This document shows positions 1-46,700 of a stretch of DNA of 64,000 nucleotides, piece after piece. Within the stretch, counting starts at the first letter, position 1, and each line of letters starts with the position of its first letter. Origin of the DNA: Isurus oxyrinchus (Eukaryota). Made by a program: the position numbers and the translations under genes. The stretch covers positions 31,372,001 through 31,436,000 of the forward strand of contig JANJGN010000025.1 of the NCBI GenBank assembly GCA_026770705.1, in the 5' to 3' direction. The notes beneath the pieces are model-generated. The model was not told where the DNA came from. It saw only the letters and a list, made by a program, of their open reading frames with translations, and searched no databases.

Positions 1-413
1 TGTGACACAAAAAAATGAAGAGAGGGAAGAAAAAAAAAGGACTGTGGATTTCAATGACTGTACATGAACTTAAAAAAAACGCATTCAAAAACTCTCCTGT
101 GTCGTTCAGAACAACTTGCTACTTATCATTTTTGTAACAAAAGGAAATTAGTCTTTTATTTTGGTTTATTTTGTAAACTTTTGAGAAATATCGATATAAA
201 GATAAGTGCATTTAAACAAGAATCTCAAAATTAGGAGGAAAGAAAATAACATTTTCCAAATTATTATAAATTGTCCTGTGTCTATGTATCTATAGCTGTT
301 TTGTATTTTTCCTGGTTTCAAACCAGTCTCCTCTGTGATTCTCTACTAATAATTTTGATATAACCATTGCTTCTTATCAGATACGGTGTATCACGTAAAT
401 ATGTTCTGCAAGA

Positions 414-419
414 ATTAAA
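414..419 (+). terminator. Candidate proximal polyadenylation signal ATTAAA
   Basis: ATTAAA inside the conserved block GCAAGAATTAAAACTGA. Confidence 0.4.
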
Positions 420-484
420 ACTGAATCCACTAAAACGTTAGACGAAAGGTTTTATTGACAGAATTGAAACTTAATGCTGGAAAC

Positions 485-1104
485 GCACTTATAGTGTTAA
501 CTCATAAGACGTTTAATTTGGGGAAGATGGACTGCAGACCTATATTAAATGATACACACTTGTAATTTAAAAATCCATTGTTGAAAACTCGTTAATATTG
601 ACATGTTGGGGGGGGGGGGAGGAGTACATTGTGGGTATATTTCTGAAAGCAAAAATCTTTTACGTGTCCAAGACACAGTACAATTTTCTTTCATTAAATT
701 TAAGAAAATTTTAGCGATCTGAATGTGGCTCCATTTAGTTCCTGTTGCAGTATAGAGTCCTACCAGGCTCCAAAAATAAAAACGCCTGTTTGTATATTTC
801 CAGTCCATTTGTAACAATTATCAACCCCCTGCCCTTTTAAAGGAAAGTAATGCCACAATTTCTTTTCTTGGATTCAGCATGGAACTCTATGTCGGCACTT
901 ACTATTTGACATGTGGTTAATTAAGTATCTAGAGTTTACAGTCGTGTATACAAGCTGAAGGTTTTTTTTAAGTGCAACATTTCTGTACTGTAAAGAGTTA
1001 TGATTGGATTGTTTGGTCAGTCTTGTGTGTTATATTCAAGAAAAAAATGAAAGTATTCGGAGATTATAATATTATTTGATATATGGAACTTTTTCGCTGT
1101 TACA
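485..1104 (+). promoter_or_regulatory. miRNA seed matches in the 3' UTR: miR-302/430 (GCACTTA 485-491, 895-901), miR-101 8mer (GTACTGTA 985-992), miR-194 8mer (CTGTTACA 1097-1104)
   Basis: Exact seed complements seen in the sequence. miR-302, miR-101 and miR-194 are reported regulators of mammalian NR2F2. Confidence 0.55.
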
Positions 1105-2445: not shown

Positions 2446-2712
2446 TAATTTAAATATTGATAAGCGGGGGCCTTGACCATAACCAACTATGATGCATAAT
2501 GGTATCTATACAGAGTAAGAAGCTGTATCTCTGTACAGTAAAGTTTCTCAACTGCAGATCGCAAGGTTACCTGTTCTACATTTAGAATAGGTTAGTCTTT
2601 TTTCTTACTAACCGCCTAACTCCTTCCCCTCCGCTGCCACCCCTCACTCCAAAATGTTACCCCCAATCTAGCTGCTTTAGAACAATAAAATTAACCCGGG
2701 GGGGGGGGGGGG

Positions 2713-3060
2713 TGAAACTGACAAAAGGGATTGAAATTGACGAGCTTGTCCTTTAACTGGAGAGATCTGAGGCTGTTGAAATATGGTGACGCTCGCTGAA
2801 GTGTCCATTTATTTTTCCTGCGGCTTTTAAAAAAAATCTGATCTCACTTCGCATTTCTGTGCTAGGGGTTAAAAGAAACCAGCCAAACATGATCTGCAAG
2901 CTTGTATGGCTCCGGCGTGCCGCCCCCTCTCTCTCTCTCGCTCTCTCTCTCTTTCTCTCAAACACTTTTTTTTTGATGGGAGGTCTGTGCAATATGACTT
3001 CACTCAGTAAGCTCGGTAACCCAAGTGTTTTCCCTTTAACCGCTAATGCCCAAATTCTGA
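2713..3060. promoter_or_regulatory. Candidate conserved non-coding element just downstream of the gene
   Basis: Complex non-repetitive block bounded by G/C homopolymers. Conservation is inferred, not tested. Confidence 0.3.
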
Positions 3061-3138
3061 GGGTGGTGGGTGGTGGAGGGGTGTATATCAGATCATGCTT
3101 TACAAGGCGGCTCGGCGATATTTAAACAGCAACAATAA

Positions 3139-3416
3139 CCCCCCCCCCCCCCCCCCCCCCCACCACCACCCCCTCCCCACAAAAAAAAAGCCCAATTAAG
3201 CGGATATAACTCAATATTACGCCATCTGCACTGCACCAAATCCAGTGCGATTTCTGAATGTTGCTTTGAAAAACGGGACGCGGTTGCGTTGTGATAGAAA
3301 GTTTTGTGCATTCTTCCTCCGTCTGTCTTTAATGGGAATTTTTTTTTTGGGGGGGGGAGGGAGGAGGGGGGCGTGGTGGGGGGGGGGAGGTGGGGGGCGG
3401 GTGTGGGGATGGGGGT
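3139..3416. repeat. C23 tract (3139-3161) and G-rich low-complexity tract (3349-3416) with G-quadruplex potential
   Basis: Directly visible runs; many GGG+ runs with short loops in 3349-3416. Confidence 0.85.
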
Positions 3417-3454
3417 GTATTTGTAATCGGAGACCGAGCGTGTGAAAGTATGTG

Positions 3455-3660
3455 TTCAGCCGGCTGGGCTTAGTGTCCTGTTAGCAAACCCAACATGGCG
3501 GCGTGTAATATGCTGCCGTCTCCAGGCGAGCAGTAATAGGAAACACATTTCAATGCCCCCCCCCCCCCCCAACCCCCTTTGCCATTTGTGTACAGAGCGG
3601 CTCCAATAAAACTATTAGCGGCAGGATATATGTATCGGCCTTATTTATTTATTCTTTTGC
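3455..3660. promoter_or_regulatory. CpG-rich element with YY1 motif CAACATGGCGGC (3491-3502)
   Basis: Strong match to the YY1 consensus AANATGGCGGC in a CpG-rich context. Confidence 0.45.
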
Positions 3661-5607
3661 AATCGTAAACGAGAGCGATCTAAGGGGGGTGTGTGTGTGT
3701 GTGTGTGTGGAAATGAGGAACCTCGGGTCTGGAAATGCAGTTGTTTCTTGCTGGAGCCGAGCAGATTTTATCCCTTGCACAGCCCTCGAGATAAAAAGGC
3801 CCGGCGTTTCACGCGATCCCTATTGTAGTTTGACATTTAAATATGCAAAAAACAACAAAATCGCCGGCTTCTCAATCCAATCGTCTTTTATAGAGTGCAG
3901 TGTATTGGCTGCACATAGCAACACAAAATAATAACGTGCATTTGCATAGATAGTTGTCTCCTGAACAATCTGTTTACACTGCTGCGCTCCGCATAACATG
4001 CTCCCCACTTCTCCGCTTAAAATCTGTTCCCCATCGCAAAGACCGAAAGGGTTAAATTCAGTCTTGTTCGGTTTAATAGTGTCAGGACAAAGCTAACAAA
4101 AAAAAACGCAAGTGATTTAACAAAGTTTGCATTAGCCGCGCCATCGGCTTGAGGGAAATGTATTTACAGCTTTTGAGGCACAGAAAATCCAGAATCTTAA
4201 ACTCCCGCCAGCATTTATTTATTTAAACTGGGCTGAAAGTTGCTTCAGATGATTCTCTCACCCCCCCACCAACACCCCCCCCCCCCATTTTCTCAAATTT
4301 CAAAGCCTCCCCACTGTGTTGTTGGGCTAATTAATGGTGAAACGCAACTAAAGCTAATTACTCAATAATTTTAAAGTAGTTAAAGCTGGGCGTTGGTTGT
4401 AACAGGATTCGAGTTGGTGAAGAAAAAGTTTGATCGTTATGTGTGGCTGTTAAACTCATTCAATATAAATGCATTTAATCACTAGAATATTCTTTAAATC
4501 TCAGACCTCGAAAAGCCAGTGGCGTTGTGTTTTTTTTAAAGAAAAGCACAACGTTGAGAGATGTGATTTCTTGCAAAATTTGAGTTGCAAATATTCCAAC
4601 GCAAAATTAATTTTAGTGCAGCTTTCAACGTAAAGATGATTGTCTCTGTGCTCGAGCTCCAAGGGACTGGGATGCAATTTTGCAGCAATTTCTATCATGG
4701 TTCTAGGGGGCTGATTTCAGTTGACAACGCGTGTGCTTGGCTTGAACTCTATAATTTGCACTTATGTCCCCGTATTACGAGCGTACAGCGAACTAATGAG
4801 CGCTTGCTTAGCCGAATGTCACATTTATTTATTTCCTTCTGCAGAAAGTTTGAGAAAGAGCCGAGGGTATGCACGAAGTCCCAGCGCTTCGTGGCACAGC
4901 CATCGGGATAACTTCACGCACGCAGACATACACACATTTCAATCCACAAGGAAGGATTTGGGTTTTTTTTTAAATGGAAATGTCACCTGGAATGGCGCCG
5001 CATTCTGCCACTTACTTTCACTTGTAAAATGGAAGTATAATCAATAATAGAATCGTGTAAGCATGAAACTGCACACGCACACACACAGTTTCAACTAATC
5101 GTAATGTATATTGACTTGAAAGCGGCTTCTAAGACGCTGACATTGTGGCGGGAAGCACGAAACATGGACAAAACAGAACTGTCTGGATTTTAAATAAAGT
5201 GCAAATTTCCATGAAACCCTCTGGTTCGGGCTGCAGCGTGATAACATACCACTAGCTAAGCTTCAGTATGTTCACACAAATCCTTTTTTAAAATATATTT
5301 TTCCCCCTTTTTTTGTCTCCCCGGGAGGTTGTCCGTCTTAAGCAGTTTTACCTTTTGAGAGAAGGTGGCATAAATCTCTTGACAAGAAAAGTGTTATTGA
5401 TTACATTGTTAACACACACACACACGTATTTTGCGTTCTGTGCAGAGCATGCTAAAACCTGGAGTAATTTAAAAAAAAACACACCTCTAACTGTGAGATG
5501 CAAACTGCATTATGAGGGGAACATTGGACTTTACGATTCCAGGCGTTTTATCTGGGCACTCAGACACTAACCCAGCTAAGGTGTGTGATTGAAAACGATT
5601 ATCCTGT

Positions 5608-5738
5608 NNNNNNNNNNNNNNNNNNNNNNNNNNNNNNNNNNNNNNNNNNNNNNNNNNNNNNNNNNNNNNNNNNNNNNNNNNNNNNNNNNNNNNNNNNNNN
5701 NNNNNNNNNNNNNNNNNNNNNNNNNNNNNNNNNNNNNN
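5608..5738. other. Assembly gap (131 N)
   Basis: Run of N. Confidence 1.
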
Positions 5739-6959
5739 AGTTGGATATGATGAAGCACTCTTTAGAAGGAGAACAGCCTGATTACTGCTATACTGCGCCT
5801 TTGATGCTCCGTTTCTAACTTTCTATCATCAGGCTCCCCACGCTCTTTCCAAAGTCATTTAATAAATGTCTATTAAAGCGCTACAAAAACGGGATAAATT
5901 TACTGTAGCTGCCGCCTTACAGGAACGAAATGCTAATGATGGATTTACCACCAGGGATTCGCCTTCAACTCAACCAGGCTGCTGTTCGCGGCCTGAGTCC
6001 TCTAAAACTCAAAGCTTCTGCACTATTTATTTTCAGTTCAAATTGACATTTCTTGGGAGGAGAATTAATTTATTGACAGCCCCACGGAATAATGTTGCCC
6101 TTCTCCACAATCTTTACTTCTGCAATTTTTCTTCATAAACGCGTGATTTGCGAATTCCTTTGTGCAAACTTTTACAGGCTTCATTGAGATGTCTATGTTC
6201 TGCTTGTCTGTCAAGTTATCTCTGTGCACACAAAGAAAGTGCTTCTAAATGGACTTAGTTCTCAGCGTGTGTGCTCTCTAAATGTTAGAAAATTGTGCCA
6301 TCTACCCGTTATTCACAGAATTGTCACTTAAGGACCTACTTCGAGTTTCAACCACAAGTTAAACACGACAGGGACACGAATGGTTCAAAGTGGGGGAAAA
6401 GCTATATTACTTTAATGCCGACACTCAGGCAGAAGTTAACCATGTTACTTCATTCCTTTTTTTTTCTATTTCTCATAATTACTAATCTTCAGTTTTATTA
6501 AAACCTGTCCTATATTACCCACCTGTTAGGCATCGTTTCGGAAGGCTGTGTGTCATGGACAACGTTTGTGCACTATGTAAATAGCGCAGATGCTAACATT
6601 TGACCACACATAGAGGCCGAAAGGAGAAAGAAACTCCGCTAGCACATTTTGCTCCAACTTTATAATGGGACATCCTTAGTTCGTCCCCCGGGGCCGGATC
6701 CTATCTCTCAAAAAAAAATCAAGCCTGGGATCTCAGATCGTGGAAAAGTGTGAACAAGGGGCAGAACGCAGAATGTAGAATCCTGCACAACTCCGCGCAC
6801 ATGAAAGTAACTCGGAGGTCGTAAGGGGGCTACCTTTGCTCTGCTCAACAAACAAAAATTTAAGCAAAACATGAACACAGTATTCGAAGTGTTTGTCCGT
6901 TCCTTTGTTTTTATTTCCACGGGTACTTCTTTTTACATTCTCCCCTGACAGGGAGGAAC

Positions 6960-7500
6960 TCTCCATTGTGGATGGATTGCTATTAAACAAGTGCACTAAC
7001 CCGGCCACATCACTAATGAAGTCAGTTTGGTAACTTTAGCGTTGCGCCCGGTTTTACAGCCCTACAATTTCGTCGCAAACACTTAGCAACTCGTACTTGA
7101 GGAACGCCGGACTTTTCACCAACACAGGCTAGCATAGCGAACCCAGTTTCGGTAGTTTAACCTAGCACTGAAGTGAAATAACACAGAGTTAATCATTAAA
7201 TAGATACCCGGGTTTGGATGGGATTTGCAAGCGAAGGATCATTTTCTGTCTGTTTATCATTGATGGGCGAGACGGTGCGGGTGCTCGGGAAATACAACCT
7301 GGGTTGTTAACAAAAGTTGTTGGCTAGTAAGTAGCCCCGTGCTAAAGATGAGGCTGATTATATCATTGCTGCGCCGCATAAATGAGACGTCCTGAGAGCC
7401 CAGGGTCAACCATCGATCCCTTCCTATATAACGAAAGGACGGGTTAATTTTCTCTCATTAGCATTTCCCATTGCACGAACCTACAGATTGACAACTAACA
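6960..7500. promoter_or_regulatory. CpG-rich candidate promoter/enhancer (GGGTCA 7403-7408, TATATAA 7425-7431, several TAAT/ATTA sites)
   Basis: Motifs seen directly; function inferred. Confidence 0.35.
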
Positions 7501-7831
7501 CATCTGCTCTGTGCTTATTTTAAAAAAAGCTTTTCCTCATCAGAAAACGCGAGTCTCATCTCTACACGTCCCTCTTTTTTGTCTTTTATTACTGCTAAAG
7601 AGAAACACACCAAGTCACCCAATCAATTCCACCTCTTCATTCATTTTCCTTCAGTCCTTCTTCCCCCATTTTTTCCTTTTTGTTTATTACCTCCTTTCGC
7701 CCCCCACCTCCCCCCAACTATATTTCGTCTTCTCCAAACCCGTCCTCTCTCTATCCCCATGCCTTGATGTTTTGTTTGCCCCTGTGAAATAGACGAGGTT
7801 TGGTCGACACCAAAGTGGCAAAGTTCAGATT

Positions 7832-8020
7832 GAGGGAGAGGGAGAGAGGGAGAGAGAGAGAGAGAGAGAAAAAAAACTCCAGCGACGAACAAAAGGATGC
7901 CTGGGCTTGGAAACTATGGCAGGGATATGAAAACCGCAGTTTCGACTGGTGTATGTATGCGTGTGTGCGTGTGTCTGTGTGTGTCTGTATGTGTGTGTGT
8001 GTGTGTGTGTGTCTGCGTGT
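7832..8020. repeat. (GA)n (7832-7868) and imperfect (TG)n (7950-8020) microsatellites
   Basis: Visible dinucleotide repeats. Confidence 0.9.
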
Positions 8021-8769
8021 ATTTTAAAGGTTTCTTTGAACTGCCTTTGTGCTGAGTCGGCGCTGCTTTTTGCCAATGCAAGTCACGGTCATACGAACTT
8101 TGTGTTAACCTCTTATGTCGAATGAATCTTTTCATTTGGAAAGACATAAATCTCATTCCGTAGCTCCTTTTGTGCAGCACGCTACGACTTAGCAAAGCCA
8201 AGTGTGCGTTCAACAACAACAACAACAAAAAGTTAAAAGAAAAGTTGCAACCGATTTTTTTAAAAAAGTATAAGTTTAAAAAAAAATAGATTGCAGTGTA
8301 AAGAGCGGAGCTGGCTGCTCACAGGAGGCATCGTGGAAGCGATCGGACTGGAAACGGAGCGCACACATACACAGTAAGCAAGCTATTTTCTAAAAAGCTC
8401 CTTCAAGGTTCGCATGGAGACGGTGATTTATCATTCCGAAACGGTCATTATTTTGGTGAATTTCAAGTAGTTAGGACCTGCTGTGATTTGAGCCGAGTGG
8501 GTAGAAACGGGACGAAGGGCTGACGGGTGAGAGAGAGCGAGAGATTCAGGACGTGGAAAATACGTTTTTTTAAAAAAAATGGTCATTTAAAAAGGATGCT
8601 TGTAAACGAGCTGTACAGCGACACGCACACGCGAAAAAGAATATTTTAGCTGAAGTTTATGTCGATCTGTCAGCATTTGGGGATTGTGGGGGGGGGGGGG
8701 GGAAGGGCCTGTAAATGTTGTGCATGCGCGAAAAAGAATGAGTGGAGAGAGCGAGAGAGAGAGAGAGAA

Positions 8770-8910
8770 AGTTTAACATTAAAGCATCTGGCCTGCAAAA
8801 CTCTCCGAATTTAAAATGGAAGTGTCAGGATTCCATTAAACAATGACTGTTACACTGCTCATTCCCGTATTGTGATGAATTTATGTGTTTTATGCTTGTA
8901 AGTGAGTCTT
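8770..8910. promoter_or_regulatory. Candidate CNE with TGTCAG (Meis), CCATTA (Hox), AACAAT (Sox) and TGATGAATTTAT (Pbx-Hox-like)
   Basis: Dense developmental TF motifs in about 140 bp. Confidence 0.45.
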
Positions 8911-10529
8911 TTTTTGAGTGTCGGTTTTTGGTTTTATTTTAAACCTTATCATTAAGTTCTCCGTAGCGACTGCCCGTTCGTTCTGGACGGTTGAGACCTA
9001 TTGTAATTCGCCGTAGCTGTAGCCATAAAATGCTCTTTAGACAGCGTGTCGACCATCCGTTGCGGCGTGCGGTATTGCAATTAGCATCTATCTGCTTTCC
9101 TTTCTCTCCTTCCCTCCCCACAACCGCACCCCCCCCCCCCCATCTCTTTTCATCTTTGCTTTCTTCTACTCCTTCTTTTCCTACCTGCGAACGTTTCATT
9201 ATTAATGCTTTCTCCAATCGACTATTACACTCCCTCACCCACCCACCACCCCCGCCCTTGTCGAATCTTTCTACACTCGGCATCATTGTGGGACAGCCGT
9301 GCTTATCACTACCGGTACAGGAGGATTCATTCGTCTCTCAGCGTTCCACTCAGAGGGTTATTAATTGCCACTACAATGCTGGTGATTTTTAACTAATAAC
9401 AAAGTTGTAAATTAACGCGTTCCTTCAAATATTCCTAATTTGTCAACATTGATTGATTTGATTAATACACCTCTAGTATAGATAATGTTGCAACCAGTAT
9501 ATTTGCGGTGTGGCTGTGTGAGAGGCTGGTAGTTTCCTATTATGAAAAACTTAATGACACAAATGTATTCTTTTTGTTAGTGGCATTATCAGCTCAACCT
9601 TTAGATAAGAAACGATCGCATGGCAAAAATTTCCGCCGCACCGTAATCTAAAATGCCAGTTTATTCGGTGCTGCTCTCTATTACAGTGAGTGGTACAGTA
9701 CAGTAGTTATAAAGTTCGATATGTGTTTGTTCACGTAGAAATTGACATAGATCGTTCACACGACGCTCATCTTGATCAATGTAAGCCCCAACATATTTAT
9801 TTAAAAAAAAACTCGAGGTGAAGTATAGCAGTGCTGATGCTTGAATACGGCATGTAGAACACCTGGAAGTCAAGAGAATACTGTTAAACTTCGACCTCTG
9901 GTCCTTTGGTTTTTTCTTTTGGGATAAAGCCGGGGAGAGAGTGGTTTGAATCGTCTCAAAGGATGGTTAAAAAGCCTGAAAGAATAGCACGCTCTGATGA
10001 TGAACTTACTGCCAACGTTAAGCCTTTAAGCCCTTTGGCGCATTCTGACAGTTTTCTATTGGAAAACAGTAACTAAGATTTGCAAAGTTCTCTCATCCTA
10101 TGAACACCTATTGTTTCGCCTCATTTCCACCACTTTCACTAGATTCTAACAATCTATTATATATATATATATACACAAGTGCATCCATGTTTGTTCTTTT
10201 TCCTTCATAGATCTAAAAACAAAAACTTTCAGCCTGCACGAATTTGGTGAATCTGCCATACTAACGAGAAGCGAGCAGGAGGCTGTTTTATTTACCTTAT
10301 CAACATTCATATTAGAAGTACAAACGTGCTTGTGCGAAACAAACTTTCCACAGAAATTAAATTTAAATGGAAGTTGCAACCTCTGCGAGACCGTATATAT
10401 ATATATATATATATAAATGAGGAATTCAATCTGCCGAGTATTGTGACTCGTCTTTAAATAGGTTGTATTTGTGTGCATGAAACCTTTGTCTGGGTTTGGG
10501 TGCAAAGCTTTTCAAGCAGACCTAGCGAT

Positions 10530-10541
10530 AGTTCAGGGTCA
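10530..10541 (+). promoter_or_regulatory. Nuclear-receptor DR0 element AGTTCA-GGGTCA
   Basis: Two perfect RGKTCA half-sites with no spacer. Confidence 0.4.
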
Positions 10542-11119
10542 CTGGCAATTTACTGTCCCATTACTTTAAAGCATAGCACCCCAAACTATTCAAGAAATAA
10601 GAAAATTGGAACGGCTGCTAAATACTACCTCGACGCTTTCCTCCCACATAACCTGCCCAAGAGTTCGGTTCATTTAAACGGAAATATATTGAGACATTTC
10701 AGGGACACAAATGGCGCACACTGCACGTTCACACTGTGAATGGGATACTTTGCCATGACATAAAGCATAACTTACACAGAATGCACTTCAACAGTCAACA
10801 TTTTCCAAGGCAGTTAAACGTAGAAATCCTTGTAAAGGAGGTGACACTAAACGCGTTTCAGCGACTTGCTGGTGCAATGGATTGCATTATGTGCATTTCA
10901 TGTGTAAATGTCTGTGTGACACATTTCGACAGTAAAGGAGAAGTCAGGCTGTACTATCATGCATTGGTGTAAAATAGTGTCCTGATTGATCGAGGAAAAT
11001 TTATTTATTCCTAAAAGCCTAACCTTTAAAACATAACAACAGCCTGGAGGACTCGTGCTCCATTGAATGGTCTGATTCGTTTGTCCAGCTCGGTAAACGT
11101 GGTTTGATGAGAATGTTAA

Positions 11120-11345
11120 ATTTCTATTAATTGCCTAGAAGCCAACGGGAAAAGAATCCATACATCAGATCCAGCAGAAAGTCTAAACTTCTAATATCAT
11201 TAGCTGGGAGACAGAATAAGGCGTCATATGGCGATATAGTAAGTAGTTAATCCTTGTAGCATCTCTTCAAATTTGATTATTAAATCGGTGGCCAGCAATA
11301 ATTTATTTACAGAGTGACTCACACATCTTGTATATTGATGACATA
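11120..11345. promoter_or_regulatory. Candidate CNE (homeodomain TAAT sites, Fox TATTTAC, AP-1 TGACTCA 11315-11321)
   Basis: Motif cluster in non-repetitive sequence. Confidence 0.35.
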
Positions 11346-12659: not shown

Positions 12660-12840
12660 CAAGATCCGATGATTAAAGCAAGCTGAGAGTAAGTAGATTA
12701 AATCGGATCTGAGATTGGAATCCCGGCTTAGCACGTGACTCTGAACAATTGCATTTATTATAATATCAGGACAATCAAACATAAACCAAGACTTATTAAA
12801 ATATCGAACACATTGCATTCATTTGAATGGGAATAGAACA
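12660..12840. promoter_or_regulatory. Candidate CNE (TGATTAA, GATTA, E-box CACGTG, AACAAT)
   Basis: Motif cluster next to a (GT)n repeat at 12575-12594. Confidence 0.35.

Positions 12841-20611: not shown

Positions 20612-20616
<5 letters not shown>

Positions 20617-20643
<27 letters not shown>

Positions 20644-21158: not shown

Positions 21159-21189
<31 letters not shown>
21159..21189. repeat. (AC)n microsatellite
   Basis: Visible. Confidence 0.95.
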
Positions 21190-33929: not shown

Positions 33930-34460
33930 GCTTGTCCTATAATCCCGTGGCATGTGCTGATGACATCACATGATGTCCATTGCCGGCAACATCCAGTCCC
34001 CTGCAACTGTCATTTAATGCTGCAAGCAAATGAAAAATGACTGTGAGACTCACTGGCTCCCAGAAGTGACCTTGAGTATTATTAGAATGACCTCCCATCG
34101 GTTTGACCAGAAGACCTTTGATATCTGCATGAAGAAAATATACGAGTGAGATGCCTCGTCTACCAATAGAAAGGACAATAGTCAGCGAGAACAGTACAAA
34201 GCTAACTCTAAGTTGCAGCTCATTGCTACCAACATTAAAAAGTGATCACTGTACACAACTTGAATCTTTGTTACCATTGCTTTGAGAATTCTGTTTTTAA
34301 TGTACATCATTAGTTTCTTATATTAATTTAAAAAGCCCCAGGCTTATAAAGGAAATATAGTCTCTGTCAGTTGGAAATGAATCTGATAGTCGATAAGAGT
34401 TTAACTCCTCTCAAGGAGCATTTTATTACAGGTTATGGCAAGCTATAGAGTCAGGAAGAA
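33930..34460. promoter_or_regulatory. Candidate CNE: palindrome GACATCACATGATGTC (33962-33977), TGACCTTGA (34067-34075), TGACCT, TCF site CCTTTGAT (34115-34122)
   Basis: High-quality motifs clustered in about 170 bp, followed by a homeodomain-rich block. Confidence 0.5.
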
Positions 34461-37400
34461 AACAACGAGTGGAATCACATGCTTTGGACTGTCAGTTCAG
34501 TGAGTAGACTGAAAGCTTTACTTGATCAAAAATTATAGGTAAATCGAATTCCTTGCTGTAATCAGCTTTTCTCCACTCAATCACGCAGTCTCTCCCATCC
34601 CTAAACAAACTCTAAATACTACCCTGCTCTAATCAGCTCACACACTCGAAGCACGCTCCATGACTAATACGATATCCTGAAAACAAATTAATGAGGACTG
34701 ATTACGGGAGAGAAGGTTAGCTCTCCTGCTCTACTTTCACCCCCTGCATCGTTCATCTTTCCCGGTCTCTTCCCTCTCTTCACATTTCATTCTGTTTAAA
34801 AAAAAATCCCGCCCCCCCCCCCCCCCCTCCCACCCACAGCTTTACCAGATTCCACCTCTCTCCCTCGTCAATCCTCTTTTCCTTCTTGTTTCTTTACTTT
34901 TCTCTGGTCAGCTCGCCTCTTTCTAACCCACTCCCGACCCCCACGCCCACCTTTCTCTTTGCCTTACCCACTATCACTTCAACCTGGAGCACAGCTTACC
35001 TATGCTGCTATGAGTGGAATGATAAACGCTCATCCCTTTACTGTCCCTTTCAACTGTGCATCCCACGCCAGCTGATATCAAAAATACAAATTGGATGTGA
35101 TCTTGCTGTGCTGCTGAGGCTTGTACCCAAACAGCTCCCTGACACACCGTGTACCTGTCTCGGATACTTGGCATTAGCAAATTTCTCAAGTGTCAGGTGA
35201 ATCCCGAAATTATTCCGATAAAACACTCATTCCATTGATTCAGCCAGGAGCCAACAACTCACTATAAACTGGTTTTATAACAAAAACAAGCACCCTTCTC
35301 GCCAGTAAATCACAGGAGGCATTGTGTCTACACCTAGTTACAATTAGTTATATGAAGGTGAGTACCACATACATACATTTGTAGCAGTGAAGAGATATAT
35401 GTTGCTTTATTCTCTCCCCCGCACCTCCACCCCCACTCACCCCACCAGCCCACTCCCCCTCCCAATATCAGACTGTTCACCTCTCATCAATCCTGAAATT
35501 AATACGGATATTGTCGTGTGCAGATTATGACCGGGGGACACTTGAGCTAATGCCTTTTACCCTATGCGCATTCGTCAATATGATAAAATGTTTCCTTTCC
35601 AAATGGGATGCTGTTGCAACGAGACTGTAATGTGCCGAATTATATGTGGTGCGACGATAGAAAGATTGATACTTCAAAGGCTGCAGATTTATTGCAATCA
35701 CATAACTATGTCGTCCATTGTGATCTTCCAACAGTCTTTCTGTGGCAAAACTGAAACCTAAATAAAAGTATATATTCTTCTGTAATGCAACATCACGTCT
35801 TGCCGATTATTTAATATTATAGCTGCAAAGTTTGATTCTGAGCATATAGAGTAAGTTATATAGAATGTTAAAATGCATATCCCTTAGTATTTCAGAAAGA
35901 GACGGATTTCTGCGGACTGGTCATTGTCAGCTCCGTAAATCGTATTCATGGGAAATCACCAAATTGCTAAGAGTGTTAAGGGAAAGAGAAGCAATGGCAA
36001 ATACTTCACAATCATCGGGATTAAAGCAACACTGCTCGTCTGCAGATGTTACAAAAACTTTACGACAAAGAGGATTTCTGAGGCTTGTTAAGTAGAACAC
36101 CTTGAGATTTATTTTATCCCCTTTCCTTAATCTGCCACGAAATCAGCAGAATGGAATCCACAGAAAGTGGCTCAATGGCTTTAAAAATACTTTTTTTTTG
36201 CCGTCTGAGCGATGATTCATCACGTGCAATTTTTTTTAAACAAATGGAAGCAAAAGTAGTGCCTCGCGTTAAACGGGCAATGAAATAGGTGCACTAGGTA
36301 TTCCTGTTTAGTAATTCCACCGTAACATACAGTTAGAACAACTTTCTTGCTTTATTCTGATGAATATTCCCTGCGGGGAATAAAAGAGCAACCGCAGAGA
36401 CAAATTGAACTAAAATGTGCTTGACTGAAGGGTGGACAACGTAGGAATGGTTGACTGAACACAGTCATCCTTTTCTGCATTCTAATGTATGATCTAGAAG
36501 CCTAACAACTTATTTCTGTGCACTTGAACAGAGCGAAGGTTTTGCTCAATCAACATGAAGGTGACAAACCTTTTGGGTAACTAGAAAGTATGATTCGCTT
36601 CTTTTCCATTAGACTTTGCGGTCTTTGGGTCAGAGGTACCTTAAATAATGGGTGCTCCTGCTGAGAGATTAAAACAGGTTCCGATGATAAAAGTACAATG
36701 AGTTAAATTTAAAGTCCAATGAAGCTGTAGCCTCGTGCTTAAAGTACAGTAGGACAAAGTACTCACACAACAGAATATATCTCTCGTGTGTCACTTTCTG
36801 TGGATTTCTCGTTCACTGATCAAGTGCAGTTATCTATTTTCTCCAGAAAACATTGTTTCTCGCCAAGTTTGCTTCCTGCCCAAATAACATGAAACCTGCT
36901 TTCAGTAACTAATCGGGCCAGTTGTTGGCCATGCTGACAGTTTTTCGCCAGGTCCCGAGAAAAAGATTGGACATTCCAGTGCTCCTTATTAAATGCTACA
37001 TTCTTAATCATTATCACACGTTATCTGTTAACCCCTCTCACGAATCAAAGTTTTAGAAAATATATTCATTCATATTTATCTGGTAGAATGTTTATATAGT
37101 AAATGTTAGTAGAAGTTTCCGACTGGAATGTAAGAACTGTATATAACTCATGGCTGCTTTGTGCATCCCCTGCATTTGCAGAGGAGGCTGATTCCAATGC
37201 TTAACGTTTTATTTTAATCCCATTTTCTTGAGTTCAACTGAACATTCAATGCTAGAATGAAACACATCAGCCAATATACTGTATACTTTTTTCTATATAA
37301 TAAATACAAGCAGCGCTTTGTACATCACCTGTGTAGGAATGTAGCGAAGCATGAAAATAAATGACTATTTTTCCGAATAAGTGGATCTGTGATAACTTTC

Positions 37401-38319
37401 AGGATAGAATTGCTTTATTTTGGTGGCTAACTAGAAGAAGATAACCTTCGTCTTTTAAAATGAGACAGATGAGAAGCAAGCCCTCTTCCAATGGTCTAAC
37501 TGTAAAATTATACACTGCAGATTACAGTCTCACCGACTCTCACACTCGACTGCACGTATCCAGTGCATATTTTGTATTCAAACAATTTGAAACATTTCCC
37601 TTAATTTAAGGTTTATCAGACATGGTTTATTACAGAATCGAAAGAGGTTTTTTTTGTCTAATTCACGGTTTAGCAGACGACCCTTTCACGAACAAATAAA
37701 AGTGGTTCAAGGTGATTGATGACAATGTTTATTCTGGCCGAGATTTATTGCAGCGACGTGTTAGCATGGAGACGAAAGGTAGCATTTAGCGCGAAGCCTC
37801 TGAGGAAGTTCTAGAGGACAAAAGTTGAATGAAAGACCCGTGCCTTTTACCTAATTCTACAGACTCCGGTCATTTTTATACCTTTGGAAGGTCATTTCAA
37901 AATATACTCCAATGTAGTACTGGAACGGTTAGCTTACACCAGTTCTTGTAACGACTAATATTATAAGTCGTATGTAATAGACGGACATTTCCGACACAAA
38001 TCTAGGGGGATGATGGGAGCATTTTCAGTCTGAGATCTATTGTTATCCATGTTCTATACTCAATGCATTATTAAAGTCACTAAAAAGACATTGCATTAAA
38101 CATTGCATCTTTAAAACTATTGCCAAGAAGAAATCCAACCACCATTATTATGGCATTTCTTTTCAAGTGTTTGGCAATATTTTTACACCACTTCAAAGTA
38201 CGGCTTACACTTTCTATACAATATATGTGATAGCAATGAAAAATACATCCGGAAACATTAACAGCCTTGATTATAGTTATATAAATCTCGCCTTGAATAG
38301 GGACTCCTAAGGCAAACTC

Positions 38320-38765
38320 AAATGCCAAAGCTCAGGGTCAATGAGAATGCACATCTTTCGGTCCTAGTCATAGATTAAAGAAATATGAATTTATTTTAAA
38401 TAGCACATTAGCATGTTGTGTCTGTAAAATCCATCATGGAGCCCAAACAGGGGGAAGGTGGTGTCCGCCTGACCAACTGCACTGCATCTCCATCAAATCG
38501 TTTCATCTTCTTTAGCAAACTTGACAAAACAGAAGAAATATGACACGTGAATTATTAAATAGAGCCCATTTGACTTTTAACCTGCTGTTTTCAGGAAGCT
38601 AAATTTCCGGTATATTTATCTTGATACACATTACAAGGGCTGCGGGCTATTGAGTTGAAAAATTCAGAGGCAGAAGGAAGAGCCAGGGCTCGAGCGAAGG
38701 TCTGCATGAGAAATGGGTCATTTGTCATAGAAAAACGTCAATAAATTAGATAGAATGATGGATAA
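38320..38765. promoter_or_regulatory. Candidate CNE (reverse Pbx-Hox ATCCATCA at ~38429-38436, CACGTG, TAAT sites)
   Basis: Motif cluster. Confidence 0.4.
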
Positions 38766-39744
38766 AAAGGCTGCAAATGGATGCGAGTGACGACAGACAG
38801 CAAACGGGGTCTGGTTGAATAAAACGGGCGCAACAGGCAACTAACTCTTACAGTATGGAATGGTCTTATTAACTGTGCGAGGATATTTGGGGATATGTGT
38901 ACCATCTAACAGGTGTTAACATGTAATAAGTTTTCAACTCTGAATATTATACAAAATAATGTAATAATTTCTTTACTAATGACATGCAGTTATGCTGATA
39001 ACAAGAAATCCTGTTCTGTTTTATAATCGCTGCCATGGTTAATATTAGGTTTAATATGATCAGTGTGGTATTTATCAGGAAATGATGGCATCCAACCGAA
39101 ATTAATAAACTTAAAATAATTAACGTCTACCACATTCTCGCCATCTAAAGTAATAATCACAAATGTAGTTCTTCATGCCAGTCATCACAATATGATGTTT
39201 TGCTTTGGGTTCAAAAATTGTAACTGCTTGTTCGAATGTTAAAAAAATGAATTCTATCTCCGTCGATATATTTTGTATTACCACCACATGGACAGATAGA
39301 AGCTGACAATTTCAAGATATGTTTGCTCTGTGATATAGATAAATATAATTCTATCGCTTAATGTGCATCATTAAAATTAATTATTTTTCAATTCACTCAA
39401 ACATCTACACAGGTATATGCTGCCCCAGCCTATAGTCAAATCATATTTGCAACTATTGCAACATTTCTATTCAAATTCACTGCTAAGTGGACGAACCAAC
39501 AGTTTGATTTAAGTACTGGTGACTGCAAAAATATATAGGATACTTGTTGGACAGGTACATCATTGATCAGAATACCTGTGCTCAGTTACTCTGATTCCAA
39601 GTACGCGGGCGAGATCACTTTTTTCTGCAATATTAATAACAATTAAAAAGAAACAGTTTAACTGTATTATTGATGCGAAAGGACACAATTAGCGAATAGG
39701 CGCTCAACAGAGGGGAAAATCCTGAGTAATTGAATAAACCAAAA

Positions 39745-40700
39745 TCTGGGTGATAGAGCAGTCAAAAGTGGCCGCGGTGACAGGAGAGCTATGAGGCAAG
39801 TGATGGATACTATTGTCCTAATTTGACCCTCCATTAACACCAGTTCTCAGCAGCTGTATTATGTCAGAAATTCCCATCGACATACAGAGGTTGTCACTAA
39901 TTTTCTCAGCACACTCAGTCCTCGATGCAGTGCTCAATCCTATCTCAAATAAATGGGTGGAGAATATGACCCAAAACTGCTCTCCAATCTGAGCAGCCTA
40001 TTACCGTCGCCAAAAAGCATTGTTGTGCAGGTGCCGGTAATTTGGTCCTTATCTCTAAAATGTTTATGCAGCTCCGTCCATTAATACTGGAAATGTTATT
40101 AATATTAATTAACAAATAAAACGAATCATTTTGGGCCCAGTGAATAGCCTCATCTTCTAATTGGACTTAAAGGAAGAAAAAAGTTGACCTACTAGTGACA
40201 GACACAGGTTTGAGGGTGACATTTCATTGTGTAGCACCATGTGAAAGAAATAAAAAGGGACCCGTCAATTTAATGCAAGGACCAAAAGTGCATATTGTTG
40301 CTAAGAGACAGGGATGCCGCTGAACTTCCATCAGAAGCTCTGCTCCGACCTTATGCAAATAGAACTGAAAACTCTTTGTGGATGGCAGCGAATTCCACCC
40401 ACCATGTCAGGAATACCTGGCAGAGGCTTTTATTCAAATGTTCAGTAAAAACACACAAGATGTGACAAAGCATGACACATTCAGCTCCGTGGAGAGAGAG
40501 GGAGAGAGAGAGAGAGAGCGCTCACCATCCAAAATGCCATCAATCCAACCTCCGGAGCTGTCATTTTTCTCCCCCTTCAGCCTCACAGAAGATTGGTCCA
40601 AAATACTAAATTGTTTCTCTTTACATCTCTAAAAGGACTATTAAGCCACATTAATGTAACTAAGCAATCTACCAGAAACGCACATTAAGGCAAAGGGGAA
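39745..40700. promoter_or_regulatory. Long candidate CNE block (TGATGGAT 39801-39808, TGACAG, RFX-like GTTGCTAAGAGAC, octamer ATGCAAAT 40353-40360)
   Basis: About 1 kb of motif-dense, repeat-free sequence apart from a short (GA)n. Confidence 0.5.
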
Positions 40701-43700
40701 AGAATCTGAGGAATGGTTGGATCATATCACTCCAATGTCCTCCTGAAATTATCTAGACCGGAGGAAAAAAAATCAAAGTAATCTCAGTAACACAAATGAA
40801 GTATGAATGTACAATTTAAAGAGGTTATAAACCATTCAGAGGTTGAACATTATTATTTGAAACTGCAAGCAGATGAATGTCTAAAATGTCATTTATGTAA
40901 GAATGTGCCACATGATAGTCTGAGATTGAGTAAATAATATTAATAATATTAATGTTAACAGATTTTGTTGGAATATTAATTCATATAACATTTTGCATTT
41001 AATTATCCCAAGAAACAATACAGTAACAGCTGATATATTTTATAAAGGAAGAAATCTCGCAGTTAATGACTGCGTAGGTCAGCTTTGTGGTTATTACCTC
41101 TTTAAAAAGGTCATGCATAGTTTTATACTGCGGGGGGAAAAAATCTAATAAATGTATTTGTAAACTATACACAAAGAGCTAGGGAGAAACAAAACTTTAC
41201 ATAGCCCAGAATATCAGTTCTGTACGCATCAACACATTTACACCAAAATGTCATACTCTATAAAGATGCACATTTAAACTTATTTTTGAATGTGTGTTAG
41301 AATTAGCGGAAAAGCTCCCACATGTACACAGATAAATTTAAAATAAATGAGTTTCAGTCTATTTTAAAAGTTAAACGCTTCATTTTAAAGGAAACAAAGC
41401 ACAAAATATATATGTGATCATCTGTCTTTGGGGGTTTGTTATGAGTGGTCAGTGTGCTGCAATAGTATTCAATCACATTTCAACAGTATCTAGATAGTCA
41501 CGAGAAAAAGTGAAATTATTTGAAGACTTACTTAAAGTCACGTTCAATAGACATGTTCGTTAAGATTTAAAAAAAATCATTCCAATCTATTTGACTTCCT
41601 TAAACACCGTTTTTTTCCGATTTAGCTTGCATTATCAATTTACGCACTTTCGAAGAAAATACATTTCTGTTTCCCCCAGCCCAACAATTTTGTTTTCAGA
41701 CGCTGAGCAAACTATAATAAAATGAATCCTTCAAAGATTAAATTACTGCAGTCAAATGTTTTGTTGTTATAATAGATCAAACTTGTCAACAGTTAAAGTT
41801 ATTTAACGCCCGCAACTTCATATTTTCAACACAAGGCAGCGCAAAAAAAAAAGGTTTGGACCGACAATCAAAATAAACTTTCAAAAAATCTGATAATAAT
41901 TGTGCAAAGAATTGAAGGCATGCGTTTTCCTGCGACATGACTTTCTGCCGTGGTAACAGTAATCATTCTGACTTTTTTGATTAAAGAGAATGTTATTATT
42001 TTAAAAATGTGTAATGTGTGATTTTACTTCTACTTTACATCACTCGACTTCAGGAGTGGTGACAAGTTTGTTTCTGCAGATTATTATATAATGCTCGAAT
42101 ATAAAACATGTGATGTAAACTATGTCAACATTTCCACCGCGTTCCCACTTAATTCTCCCCCTTCATATAGGTTTTCAATAAAATGTCTGCATTGCTTTGC
42201 AAAACGAATTTGGAATTCATGTATTCATAGTTTAAATAAACGAAGTTACTTAACTAGTATCACATTAAGCGCTGTAAACTCCGAAAGGAAACTAATTTGT
42301 TCCGTAGTGAATGTAAAAGTTAAAGCAAGTTATGCAGTTGGATAAATAGCAAGTGAAAATTGTACTGTAGAAGTTATCTCAGGGTAAAAAGGGGACCATT
42401 ATGTTTCCAATATTGCAAAAGGCGTGGAGGCTAAAATCGGAATTGTCCATTTTGTTTCACGATACAATCTTAAACCAGCAGTTAAATTACCTTGAAATTG
42501 AAACAGAAATTGTGGCGAGATTTCCAAATAGCAACCAATTTTCATAAGGTGTATAATAAGATGGGTATTTAAACAAGCGCTGCGTATGTTCAGGAAAGGT
42601 TTTAATGGGAAATTCAGTAGGTGTTGTAAATATTAATGGGATTTGAAATTGCTCGGTTTCCGATAGCAGCGCATGGAACAGCTGACAGCAACACACACGG
42701 AACATGTGGCGGCCCAAGAGCAGGATGGTCCGTGCTCTTGTCTTCTCTACTTCATTACACCATTCCAAGTGTTTCAGTACAGTTTAGTTCAGGAAATAAA
42801 GTCCACGGGTCAGCCATGCCAAATGTCCTCGTTTCTGGCCAAACTAGACCCACTCATGGCCCCAGTATTACACGTAGCTCCTTGGAGATAGAGATAGAGA
42901 GAGAGAGAGAGAGACAGCGCTGGGGAGTCCTTAAGGCTCACGTTCACAGGTAGATGTCATGAGAGGACTCCCCACCACAGACTATGGAGACAAATCTGTT
43001 TGCCTGTCCCCTCCCTTCACTCTGCTATCATGAATATGTAACCTGGCGGGTGACTGTGGACGGGGACAGTGGCTCCCAAAGTCAGACGCATTACATCCAG
43101 CCCAGGAATGCACACCGATCATCTCCACCAGAGAGAGTATGTCCTATAATTTAACGCAGCAGAGGGCTTTTGGAAACGAATCCCAGGTCATATTACCAGG
43201 GGCTTCCTACCGCTGTTGGTCCTAACAACATGGAACCCAGCAATAACTTGAACGAGAACAATCGTTAGGTACAATTTCTTAACTACCTGTCAATTTAAGG
43301 TCGGTGTTAGCAATCCAAAATTAACCCAGCTGTATTTTAGAGTTGGGTACCAATAAGGGCAGCAAAACAAAAAGTATTTTTCTGCACTAGAACCATGATG
43401 GTAAAAATGGTACAATCTGTTGTATCCCAAGCCAGATTTCACCTAATTCAATTTCGGAATAGGGAAACGTGTCAATTTATCCCGTCAGCGCCCCTTTTCG
43501 CTCCAAGCTGTCTTATTGTTAAATGTACACAGATCAACTCTTTTTGCACAGTGTTGGGAAAATCGAAGACTTCACAAATGTTCGTTAAACCAAACGAAGT
43601 GAGTGTGCTTTACTTAGAGGGCAGAAGGATCCAAATGGAAATCCTTCTCAATAGTGTACACTCGAATTGCTTTTTGCAGTTAGTTTGCATAATGCATTGA

Positions 43701-46700
43701 GGCTGCCATAATTATATTTTACAGGGCGCCACTTCTTATCGAGATAAATGTGGGCTAACAAAATAGAGCATTTCCGCATAATCACGAGTTTAAAGACGGA
43801 TACAGATATGATTGTCTGTTTCATAGACTGGCTGATTGAACTATTATTAACTACATTTCAAATGTAAATGTGCACAATAGCCCATCAACAACTAGCGTCC
43901 CATACGAAGGCTCGAGGGAATAATGCAGGGACTGTTGATTGGGTTTACCTCTACCTGAAACACGCGATCGTCAGCCCTGATTCCGTCATAGCAGAGAACT
44001 CACAGAGCAAAAACATGCACAGGTTGCCTCACAAGCGTTGTCCATCTATAGAATAATGAATTGGCCATTTCCATCTAGTGCTCCATTAAGGATAGGGGAG
44101 GTCTGATGAAAGGTTGCAATGGTCGGATGAAGCGATTATAACACACCTTTTTGAACAGTTCTAAATGTCTTTCTTTATTATTGCATAATGATTTTTCTTT
44201 CAGCGTCACCCGTGTAAAAATGCTAATGCATTGGGGGCACCGGATAGAGAATCATTGTGAGCCCAGGCAAGTAATGTGCACTGTTCCGTGCCAAAACATG
44301 CTTACCCTTCTGTAATTAATATATTCATCGCAGGGTTAGAATTTTAATGTATACCTATTGATTTCGTAGCAGAATATTCCATTCATATATTTAACTGTAA
44401 CCGTGAAATGCATGGGCTATGAATTAAATATTAATAAAGAAATAAGACTATCTCTTAAGGTTAAAACAATGTAACCAGTGTCATTGCTGATTTACATCTG
44501 GAATGGGAGCATAAATCAAACTGATGTCATGACTTCATTGAATAAAGACAGGGCTGAGCACCACACACCATTTTATGGTTTTATATTAATGACAGACTTT
44601 AAGTACAGTTAATTCATATTCCATGCAGATTTCCGGTAAATCCAAACTATAACCACTGTGGATGTGATTACTTTTAAAACTCTGCCCTGGTGATAATTAT
44701 GGTGGCCCGAAGTCTGTTAGAGTTTAAATCGCGAAAAGCAGAATGAAATATTACACGGTGGACTGTGTTGTAAACAATCCATGCACTATTTAACACTCTG
44801 TGATTGCAATTCATGTTGTTTCCCCATTCGAGGCAACTTGCTCTTGAATTCGTATCGAAGTGATCCTGCATCCAACCTTGCCTGAGAAAAGTCAAGGGGC
44901 AGACCATCACAAGATAACAAATTTACTCTTCTGTCACTTAAATGTTCCTCCCAAATAAGTTACCTTTATCATGGCCGCATATATACATATGGATCTACCT
45001 CTGTCGAGTGATTCAATGCATTTTCTATGACTCACATTCATTGCCACAGAACTGATAAACTACAGGACTAAGGCATATTAACAGCACCGTGCAAGCTCAT
45101 CTTACTTTTAGAGACATGCTGAAAGCGAAATCAGATCAACTGTGTCCACTGATGTTCAGTTACCCTCGCATCACTATAGGAGTCACTTGATCAACGTGCT
45201 GATGCTCTATCACTCACTACCCCCCCGCCCCCCACCCCTGCCACAACCATCCAACCTTCCAAAATCTCAGCAAAACAAGTATACGCAGGAAACTTCCTGA
45301 TGCAATGAGTAATTGTCAATCTACACGATAATTATCAATACATTTTGCATTTTAGAGCTAGGTTTGTTTCCCTCTCTCTCGGCAACTTATCCGATAGGTC
45401 AGTTGTTATCAGAAGGCTATGCACCTTTAGCATTCTCAGTACTCACTGTGACACGTCCTTTGGCTGATAACGCCGTGTACAGTCATCTAAGTACAGCAAT
45501 TCACACACAGGCCTAATGTTTGCCTTTCGATGTCTTTAATGACAAAAATGTTTGAAAGGCTCCAGGAGGTCCATCAGTTCACCGGGAAAACGTATCTATC
45601 AGCCTAAGTACACAAAGCTCAGAGAGGGCGTCATGGCATATATAATATTGACGCATGACTCAGTGTAGACAGGGTGCAAAGTCGTACCAAGGTGAACAAA
45701 GGGGCAGGTATAGATGTGACACAGTCACATAGGTCAAAAAGTGTTGATAGATACAATGATAACATTAGCTATTAATATTTTGATAATAATTAGGGGATAA
45801 AAGAGAAGGAACAACAAGCCTAATCAGCACTTTATCCACCTGAAGAAAGGTAGGAACGGTTTTAGTGATGCTCTGGCTTTTTATTGGCTGCCTTTGTGTT
45901 TGCATTCGCACATTATGAATCAAAGTATTGCATTTGGTAGATAACACAGGCTGTTAAAAGCAAACAAGGTCAGTGGGGCTATGTAGGGGCAAGGGCATGG
46001 ACATGGTTATCTCAGTTAAAGCAGCAAAAAAATATAGTGTGAAAGATAGAAAATTTTTTAGGTAAAAACATTCTGCATGGTTCAAGAACATAATAGTTCA
46101 ACTGACTTTTTAATCCTATTGAGTTTTCATATGTTTTATATATATAATTTATATGTATATACACACATGTAACTGTAAATCACTCATCTTATGAATAGGC
46201 CAGTTGATCCAAAGATGTAGTCGGATGGCTTACCTTTCACATTGTGTATAGAGTTACTGCTGATGACACCTGTGAACAATAGCACAGTAATGTTGGCAAT
46301 CATTGGCAAAACAGGTGTCATTGACAGAATATTATTTATGACAATAGAAAGTGCAAAAGGCAACAGGTATGCAGTCATTACATGATGTCTAAAGGAAATT
46401 TGAGATTAAGGCAATAAAGTGGTTATGTGCTCTCATCATTTGTTCACCCTTGTCTGCTTGTTATAGTTACATTTGTTCCATGAGCATCAGCTATGGAGAA
46501 CATAATTTTCTAACATGAACTGATGGGCAGCATCCAAAATTTAACTTACTAATGAAAGCCCCCTCCACCGTGAGAAAAGTAACTGCCATTGCAGATGAGT
46601 TTCAGAACCCAAAGCATTGAATTTCTATTTGCTGCTTGCCGATGGAAGACACTAAAAGCTTCCCCCAGAAGCAACATTCACTTAAGGTTTAGGAAGATCT

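Follow-up and report, generated by a model that had tools for sequence, protein, structure and literature searches.

Why does a stretch of DNA, probably from a shark, beside a likely developmental gene keep its CpG dinucleotides for at least 45.7 kb and then lose them across an edge of at most ~2 kb? The window considered here, the whole 64,000-nt stretch that was analysed, opens with what is likely the distal part of a COUP-TF 3′ UTR (1..800, plus strand), in which hexamers at 414, 544, 693, and 775 are candidate poly(A) signals; we take the gene to be NR2F2. No coding exon was recognised by eye in the 44 stop-to-stop frames of at least 100 aa in the whole window, and none of these frames resembled a host protein; the gene name therefore rests on the putative 3′ UTR. 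A 21-letter stretch of the putative UTR had no match in a literature text search, and scans of the window gave no Rfam match at gathering score and no ARAGORN gene. The identity of the paralogue would not alter the class of the locus, since Nr2f1 likewise occurs 21 times in a mouse list of methylation valleys (PMC5806489 supplement). Positions 1..45,704 probably represent the 3′ portion of a DNA methylation valley (a broad non-methylated island) that is unmethylated in the germline and lies at the likely NR2F2 gene; this valley likely has a transposon-free core.

The CpG step and its edge

Over the 64,000-nt window, CpG observed/expected (o/e) is 0.68 within 1..45,704 and 0.21 beyond, making the domain three times as CpG-rich as the adjoining flank. 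Inside, the CpG/GpC ratio is 0.61, and CpG retention runs on past the window's left end. The original prediction placed a sharp boundary at ~45.7–46 kb and proposed sliding-window CpG o/e as a check, and the step is indeed there. A change-point analysis of CpG against GpC located it at 45,704 (support 45,591..45,960; 2dLL 168), a score reached by none of 1000 permutations at each of four block sizes of up to 4 kb. All 46 of the 1-kb bins up to 46,000 have a CpG o/e of 0.40–1.12, and all 18 bins past that point fall at 0.09–0.33. For a logistic edge, 10–90% widths of up to ~1.8 kb lie within 2 log-likelihood units, while 3.5 kb is 3.6 units worse. The earlier hand counts of CpG were exact at all four sites (15 in 26,881–27,120, 8 in 43,861–44,100, and 0 in both 46,261–46,500 and 60,061–60,300), the first being an extreme sample (o/e 1.31 vs. 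the domain mean of 0.68). Matches to a CTCF-like pattern numbered 13 vs. 13.6 expected, with none less than 1.6 kb from the edge.

Among the 16 dinucleotides, CpG is the most altered across the edge; by dinucleotide counts, CpA o/e goes from 1.17 inside to 1.30 outside and TpG from 1.18 to 1.26. Conceivably, CpG in the domain is replenished, independently of methylation, by GC-biased gene conversion or some other regional mutation bias. A/T runs of at least 8 are more frequent inside (1.16 per kb vs. 0.39 in the unmasked flank, p 0.025) and microsatellites are also enriched there, so the mutational regime differs beyond CpG. However, GC is not higher inside (39.2% vs. 40.5%; Mann-Whitney p 0.68), GpC o/e is nearly the same (1.12 vs. 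1.06), and A/T runs change over a broad zone farther left (19–44 kb), out of register with the sharp CpG edge; such a bias is judged quite improbable. Because GC does not differ between the two sides, AT-richness does not distinguish the domain, and that part of the original prediction does not hold.

The abruptness of the edge would also suit an assembly join, or a left part made of foreign DNA. The sole assembly gap in the window (131 N, 5,608..5,738) is 40 kb from the edge, though, and a contig of the source organism covers 42,926–47,197 with one difference and one gap letter. Contigs of a relative, a second species ~1% diverged and represented by contigs from two studies, cover 40,529–47,273 unbroken, and at least 16 of its runs contain ~70% of the words sampled from 37,001–46,900; no RNA run was among those listed for these words. 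The CpG step is present in two species. Contigs of an independent species across the edge refute an assembly join, and the chance of an artefact or foreign origin is negligible.

Layout of the domain

The domain comprises a core (2,601..28,400) with a CpG o/e of 0.70–0.81, no recognised transposon, and many A/T runs and CA/GA microsatellites, followed by an outer shelf (28,401..45,704) with a CpG o/e of 0.58–0.60 and sparse, old repeat fragments, which is single-copy by depth from 38.6 kb. The fall in CpG o/e is gradual, from 0.78–0.81 at 2.6–18 kb to 0.58–0.60 at 28.4–45.7 kb (Spearman −0.51, p 0.0006), and a second, internal step was not significant in the change-point scan (2dLL 5.6). TpG and CpA are still in excess within the domain (1.17–1.18) and CpG o/e drops to 0.55–0.60 close to the edge; the outer shelf may therefore be methylated in part or intermittently.

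The retained length of at least 45.7 kb, a sequence proxy rather than measured hypomethylation, is above the 5-kb minimum given for methylation valleys in the accessible part of PMC5806489. By the classical criterion the window holds no CpG island (no Takai-Jones-like region with GC of at least 55%, o/e of at least 0.65, and at least 500 bp), and Gardiner-Garden-like criteria pick out 10 patches totalling 3,230 bp, eight of them inside the domain. Island callers would therefore miss most of it, as had been anticipated.

Transposons and the flank

Past the CpG edge lies a single-copy, CpG-depleted interval (45,705..46,949; o/e 0.12), and the repeat-dense, CpG-depleted flank starts at ~46.9 kb (46,950..64,000). 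All 12 depth bins over 38,601–46,604 are single-copy, and 12 of 18 over 46,605–58,600 exceed a depth of 1000 (run X10). When the right-hand repeats were compared with the left part, one convincing match was found (28,638–28,780), the rest being low-complexity or of E ≥0.15; similarly, tblastx of five right-hand repeats gave only the tail at 28.6–28.75 kb below E 0.03. Before 28,638, no match was found to the repeat families present in the window, copy number being covered from 38.6 kb. The predicted transposon gradient is supported, its left-hand absence being relative to the window's own families.

The flank includes a 5′-truncated, decayed LINE with a reverse-transcriptase fragment (58,165..59,350, plus strand; Pfam RVT_1, E 6.8e-23) and a second copy that is 79% identical to it (51,745..52,431, minus strand). 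Six short frames scanned with Pfam yielded this one RVT_1 match and one sub-threshold chance match. The stretch at 47.0–47.6 kb, presumably L2-like judging from its depth and by eye, had no reverse-transcriptase match in the Pfam scan.

Could methylated transposons filling the right-hand side account for the step by themselves? Approximately 44% of 45,705–64,000 is repeat by a rough hand mask, and dense repeats begin ~1.25 kb past the edge. Nevertheless, CpG is as scarce in the unmasked flank (o/e 0.196) as in the masked repeats (0.214), with the proviso that the mask is approximate and may leave old, unrecognised repeats unmasked; depletion is already complete enough in the single-copy interval to give 0.12, and repeat relics inside the domain keep an o/e of 0.50. 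The depth bins, too, suggest that a substantial share of the CpG-poor DNA on the right is unique. An origin of the step in transposon content is accordingly very improbable. CpG retention ends at 45.7 kb, at neither of the transposon edges (28.4 kb and ~46.9 kb).

Repeat relics as inside and outside controls

A LINE 3′ tail inside the domain (28,644..28,751, plus strand) carries six CpGs, and its outside copies (59,234–59,341, plus strand; 51,746–51,851, minus strand) carry none. Opposite all six inside CpGs, each outside copy reads TpG or CpA (12 of 12 sites). At two of the six the outside copies differ, with TpG in one and CpA in the other, the signature left when an ancestral CpG decays on one strand or the other. 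This comparison concerns one 108-bp element. A third LINE-like outside copy (63,728–63,845) has one CpG near the fifth site and is too poorly aligned to count. The tail splits an old SINE-like relic (28,440..28,990, plus strand), which we take to be a SINE and which belongs to the family of 54,330–54,790 by weak similarity (E 0.28). Together, the SINE relic and LINE tail hold 14 CpGs in three inside pieces vs. two in the matching outside pieces, the SINE alignment being too poor for site counts. The LINE copies form a small built-in control, suggesting that an element inserted into a valley can be spared the decay that methylation brings.

Divergence from a related species

Among the differences from the relative that were listed (40 of 210, all outside the domain), seven are CpG transitions. 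Outside, 3 of 46 CpG bases have changed vs. 10 of 1,332 other C/G bases (odds ratio 9, p 0.008), the CpG rate estimate there resting on seven events. The contig over 40,529–47,273, mostly inside the domain, has 76 differences in 6,745 positions (1.13%) and 129 CpGs, counted as totals rather than site by site, vs. 114 in 7,508 (1.52%) and 54 CpGs outside (p 0.048); it is less diverged despite a 2.7-fold higher CpG density. Outside rates predict 100–124 differences on this contig vs. the 76 seen (probability of 76 or fewer at most 0.007). Transition/transversion totals per run pool both sides of the edge.

The lower inside divergence could also stem from purifying selection. One alternative would indeed have the region methylated and its CpGs kept by purifying selection on dense regulatory elements. 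The lower divergence is in keeping with it, as is the density of transcription-factor sites in valleys described in the available text of PMC5806489. Yet CpG is retained in every one of the 46 inside bins and in a decayed LINE tail that is unlikely to be constrained, and a divergence lower by only about a quarter hardly seems enough to reflect site-wise selection across 1,195 CpGs. This alternative is considered improbable.

Proposed mechanism

The CpG step, the inside/outside contrast in one LINE family, and the differences from the relative all point the same way: CpGs left of the edge would long have been protected from methyl-CpG deamination, which would still go on to its right. Low CpG deamination relative to the flank, non-island sequence included, is indicated by the step and the LINE tail and more indirectly by the species divergence, and these results support the original reading of the domain as a sequence fossil of a valley. 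From established chemistry, CpGs outside would carry germline methylation and be lost by deamination to TpG/CpA, and those inside would escape germline methylation and persist. By analogy with the mouse, Polycomb with TET enzymes, together with CXXC proteins at denser patches, may well keep the valley unmethylated and set its edge, an arrangement that we lean toward. In addition, transposons inserted into the regulatory core would likely be removed by selection; this would account for the differing edges at 28.4, 45.7, and ~46.9 kb.

Several published observations bear on this scheme. The elephant shark genome is globally CpG-methylated, TEs included, according to the available part of PMC5437953. 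Low deamination in the non-island parts of valleys and dependence on Polycomb/TET are described in the accessible text of PMC5806489, and its supplement lists mouse Nr2f2 among the valley genes of all 21 samples, sperm and oocyte included. Mouse Nr2f2 valleys also carry H3K27me3 in retina (PMC4798964 supplement).

Significance

A valley at a developmental gene belongs to a class already described in other vertebrates, and the finding overturns nothing. Such valleys are known in mammals and bony fish. The large 3′ extent of the putative NR2F2 valley is possibly new. A literature search, its coverage excluding most subscription journals, found no description of a valley in a cartilaginous fish and no paper on NR2F2 as a hypomethylated Polycomb canyon, and NR2F2 is absent from four supplementary files of PMC6085761. 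If confirmed, the domain would extend valleys to the other branch of jawed vertebrates and make a valley border locatable from sequence alone. Moreover, three borders that are usually lumped (transposon-free, CpG-retaining, and repeat-dense) would come apart.

A bolder and distinctly tentative proposal is that in this lineage a conserved downstream core of ~28–30 kb, in agreement with where the human transposon-free region ends, is joined to a 17-kb shelf far larger than the mammalian valley, keeping LINE and SINE relics unmethylated, and that the edge has long been fixed and is readable to 2 kb. Were the edge fixed long enough for such a readout, the slowly evolving genomes of sharks would allow ancestral jawed-vertebrate valleys, borders included, to be mapped without a methylome.

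Comparison with known systems

Transposon-free regions are stretches of at least 10 kb that hold no annotated transposon. In human, the regions hs15.253 and hs15.254 presumably contain NR2F2 and end ~30 kb past the gene. They span chr15:94,658,960–94,713,228 (hg18) (PMC2241635). In zebrafish, such regions average 38% GC, and the one at nr2f1 measures 28.6 kb, compared with 28.4 kb lacking a recognised transposon beside the likely COUP-TF gene here (PMC2241635). Unlike those regions, CpG retention here reaches ~17 kb past the transposon-free stretch, as judged against the window's own repeat families.

Broad non-methylated islands, as presented in the accessible text of PMC3583005, span genes in the testes of seven vertebrates, are enriched in H3K27me3, and are poorly picked up by island callers in cold-blooded species. 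They were measured by CXXC capture; no cartilaginous fish was found in that text, and the main text does not mention nr2f2. The K27HMDs of medaka (PMC4331722) are also large hypomethylated domains at developmental genes in a fish, marked there by H3K27me3. Examples run to ~4–20 kb, with ~90 kb at the hoxa cluster, and the single-gene domain here is larger than the non-Hox examples.

In mouse photoreceptors, Nr2f2 valleys of 5.0 and 8.1 kb are recorded (PMC4798964), and here the domain extends for at least 45.7 kb beyond the likely final exon, sizes that are not directly comparable because definitions and tissues differ; no row for a further photoreceptor valley at 70.30–70.35 Mb was found in that supplement. 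DNA methylation valleys or canyons are defined from methylomes, whereas the present domain is inferred from sequence alone. Nonetheless, as portrayed in the available parts of PMC5806489 and PMC4798964, they are likewise large, CpG-retaining, low in deamination, and mostly non-island, and they are situated, as the present domain likely is, at developmental transcription-factor genes.

CpG Retention and Its Edge

The CpG domain at the left of the window is a real, well-bounded feature. The observed/expected (o/e) CpG ratio lies between 0.40 and 1.12 in all 46 of the 1-kb bins up to 46,000, and between 0.09 and 0.33 in all 18 bins beyond. A change-point fit of CpG against GpC places the step at 45,704 (support 45,591–45,960; 2dLL 168), a Poisson fit places it at 45,690, and the step statistic was reached by none of 1000 permutations at each of four block sizes. 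The transition is also narrow, with a width of at most ~1.8 kb within 2 log-likelihood units, and a width of 3.5 kb fits 3.6 units worse. The original prediction of a sharp CpG edge near 46 kb is thus borne out, and its four hand-counted CpG samples (15, 8, 0, and 0) were all exact on recount.

Among the 16 dinucleotides, CpG changes the most, from an o/e of 0.68 inside the domain (1–45,704) to 0.21 outside (45,705–64,000). TpG and CpA, for which an excess had been anticipated, both rise outside, as does ApG (0.97 to 1.17). The domain had further been described as AT-rich, which holds for the window as a whole but not as a trait of the domain, because GC content does not differ between the two sides (39.2% inside versus 40.5% outside, p 0.68). 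Runs of eight or more A/T number 53 inside versus 4 outside, G/C runs 14 versus 2, and CA/GA microsatellites 16 versus 0; the A/T-run change point, broad at 19–44 kb, does not coincide with the CpG edge.

Within the domain, CpG o/e drifts downward from ~0.8 at 2.6–18 kb to 0.55–0.60 at 28.4–45.7 kb (Spearman −0.51), and the change-point fit found no significant second step there. Positions 1–2,600, likely 3′ UTR and the DNA directly after it, have the lowest o/e of seven inside segments (0.48), which could stem from transcription-linked gene-body methylation. No coding exon was recognizable in the window by inspection of reading frames; bases 1–800 probably belong to the 3′ UTR of NR2F2, which they resemble, and they are somewhat similar to NR2F1 as well. 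An AT-rich stretch at 40,050–40,360, with clusters of homeobox-like TAAT/ATTA motifs, resembles by eye a putative conserved non-coding element.

Transposable Elements on Either Side of the Edge

The repeats of the window are presumably of shark LINE and SINE families. In run X10, one of the sequencing runs, all 12 of 12 bins across 38,601–46,604 have single-copy depth, and depth exceeds 1000 in 12 of 18 bins from there to 58,600. The flank, 44% repeat by an approximate hand mask, includes a LINE with an RVT_1 fragment (58,165–59,350; E 6.8e-23) and a second copy 79% identical to it (~51,745–52,431). When the left part was searched with right-hand tiles and repeats, one convincing relic was found (28,638–28,780), enclosed by a more weakly matching SINE-like relic; a short repeat tail at ~29,525–29,670 was recognized by eye only. 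The predicted density of elements beyond ~46.9 kb therefore stands, while their absence before 28.4 kb holds for the window's own families, and others could be missed in 1–38.6 kb.

Several flank elements were observed individually. The very high-copy repeat at 54,850–55,530 (depth ~1e6), one of just two loose CpG-island patches outside the domain, has CpG slightly above its neighbours, probably because it inserted more recently and its CpGs are still to decay. At its right end the window has a GC-rich element that holds a likewise GC-rich 30-bp tandem repeat (63,154–63,423; ~6.4 copies, 93% match), where CpG o/e is low (0.25) though GC reaches 59%. A 47-nt inverted repeat at 59,933–60,097 (74% complementary, arms 71 nt apart) is possibly a decayed small DNA-transposon relic.

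Repeats could be invoked as the cause of the step itself. By the same approximate mask, however, flank CpG o/e is 0.214 in repeats and 0.196 in non-repeat DNA; it is 0.12 in the single-copy stretch 45,705–46,949, and the first repeat begins ~1.25 kb past the edge. The edge is therefore independent of repeats, and this explanation was rejected.

Methylated CpG deaminates to TpG or CpA, and within one LINE family the fate of CpG differs inside versus outside. The LINE tail at 28,644–28,751 (inside) has six CpGs, whereas no CpG is present in the two outside copies that align well, and all 12 of 12 matching sites in them are TpG or CpA. At two of the six sites these copies show opposite decay products, which points to an ancestral CpG there. 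A third outside copy, poorly aligned and with one CpG left near the fifth site, was excluded from the counts. The SINE pieces hold eight CpGs inside versus two outside, in an alignment too loose for site counts.

Presence of the Edge in a Second Organism

An assembly join at the edge was also considered. The sole assembly gap in the window is at 5,608–5,738, and 37,001–46,900 is present, by shared words, in 20 of 24 listed sequencing runs, four from the source organism (0.98 of words) and 16 from a relative ~1% diverged (~0.71). Four of the 20 were aligned to 38,601–58,600; run X7, about half of which was examined, gave next to no coverage of that stretch. A source-organism contig, not independent of the assembly, spans 42,926–47,197 with one difference and one gap letter, and contigs of the second organism, from two studies, span 40,529–47,273 unbroken. 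As contigs of two species cross the edge, it is a real junction common to both, and with no gap nearby an assembly origin was rejected.

Of 210 differences from the second organism, 40 were examined singly, all in the flank, and seven of these 40 are CpG transitions. CpGs outside are hypermutable: in covered stretches of the flank, at least 3 of 46 CpG bases have changed versus at least 10 of 1,332 other C/G bases (odds ratio 9 and p 0.008 from these minimum counts). Six flank contigs with 54 CpGs differ at 114 of 7,508 places (1.52%). For the contig over 40,529–47,273, where 119 of the 129 CpGs lie on the inner side of the edge, the count is 76 of 6,745 (1.13%, all types of difference together). 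Flank rates predict for the latter ~84 non-CpG and 16–81 CpG differences, and the probability of 76 or fewer is at most 0.007. This low divergence is consistent with unmethylated CpGs inside, and constraint on regulatory DNA could likewise lower the count. At 54,289 the second organism also has, in two runs, an insertion of 25 letters that the window lacks.

Proposed Mechanism and Known Valleys

Elephant shark DNA is methylated globally, transposable elements included (PMC5437953). Judged from sequence, the left part has very probably been unmethylated in the germline over a long time, and the domain is best explained as the sequence footprint that a germline methylation valley of a probable COUP-TF gene would leave. 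In mouse, the non-island parts of valleys are kept unmethylated by Polycomb and TET (PMC5806489), and by analogy it is reasonably probable that the same machinery would hold this domain unmethylated. A pattern search of the window found no CTCF-like motif marking the edge. The apparently transposon-free core ends earlier, at 28.4 kb, which suggests a separate force, conceivably selection against insertions in a regulatory core.

Valleys as a class are already known; what stands out here is how far the domain reaches beyond the gene, a transposon relic that has kept its CpGs, and an edge that can be read from sequence. On human chr15, two transposon-free regions probably end ~30 kb past NR2F2, a distance similar to the 28.4 kb of the window. 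These regions adjoin and together span 54 kb (PMC2241635 supplement file 2), that of zebrafish nr2f1 spans 28.6 kb, and such regions are kept from fish to mammals (PMC2241635). No description of a shark valley was found in the literature searched, a scope that left out most subscription journals; PMC9842680 includes 32 cartilaginous-fish samples, with no valley analysis found in the portions seen, and no size for an NR2F2 valley was found in the accessible parts of PMC6606599 or of the PMC6085761 supplements. Developmental genes across vertebrates are known to lie in valleys and broad non-methylated islands, and in cold-blooded species these are poorly predicted by island callers (PMC3583005, PMC5806489). 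In mouse, Nr2f2 is listed as a valley gene for 21 of 21 samples, sperm and oocyte among them (PMC5806489 supplement file 2). It is also named as valley-bearing in endothelial cells (PMC6126923), and in photoreceptors two valleys marked by H3K27me3, 5.0 and 8.1 kb long, are assigned to it (PMC4798964 supplement file 4). Finally, examples of hypomethylated domains in medaka measure ~4–20 kb, and that of hoxa ~90 kb (PMC4331722).
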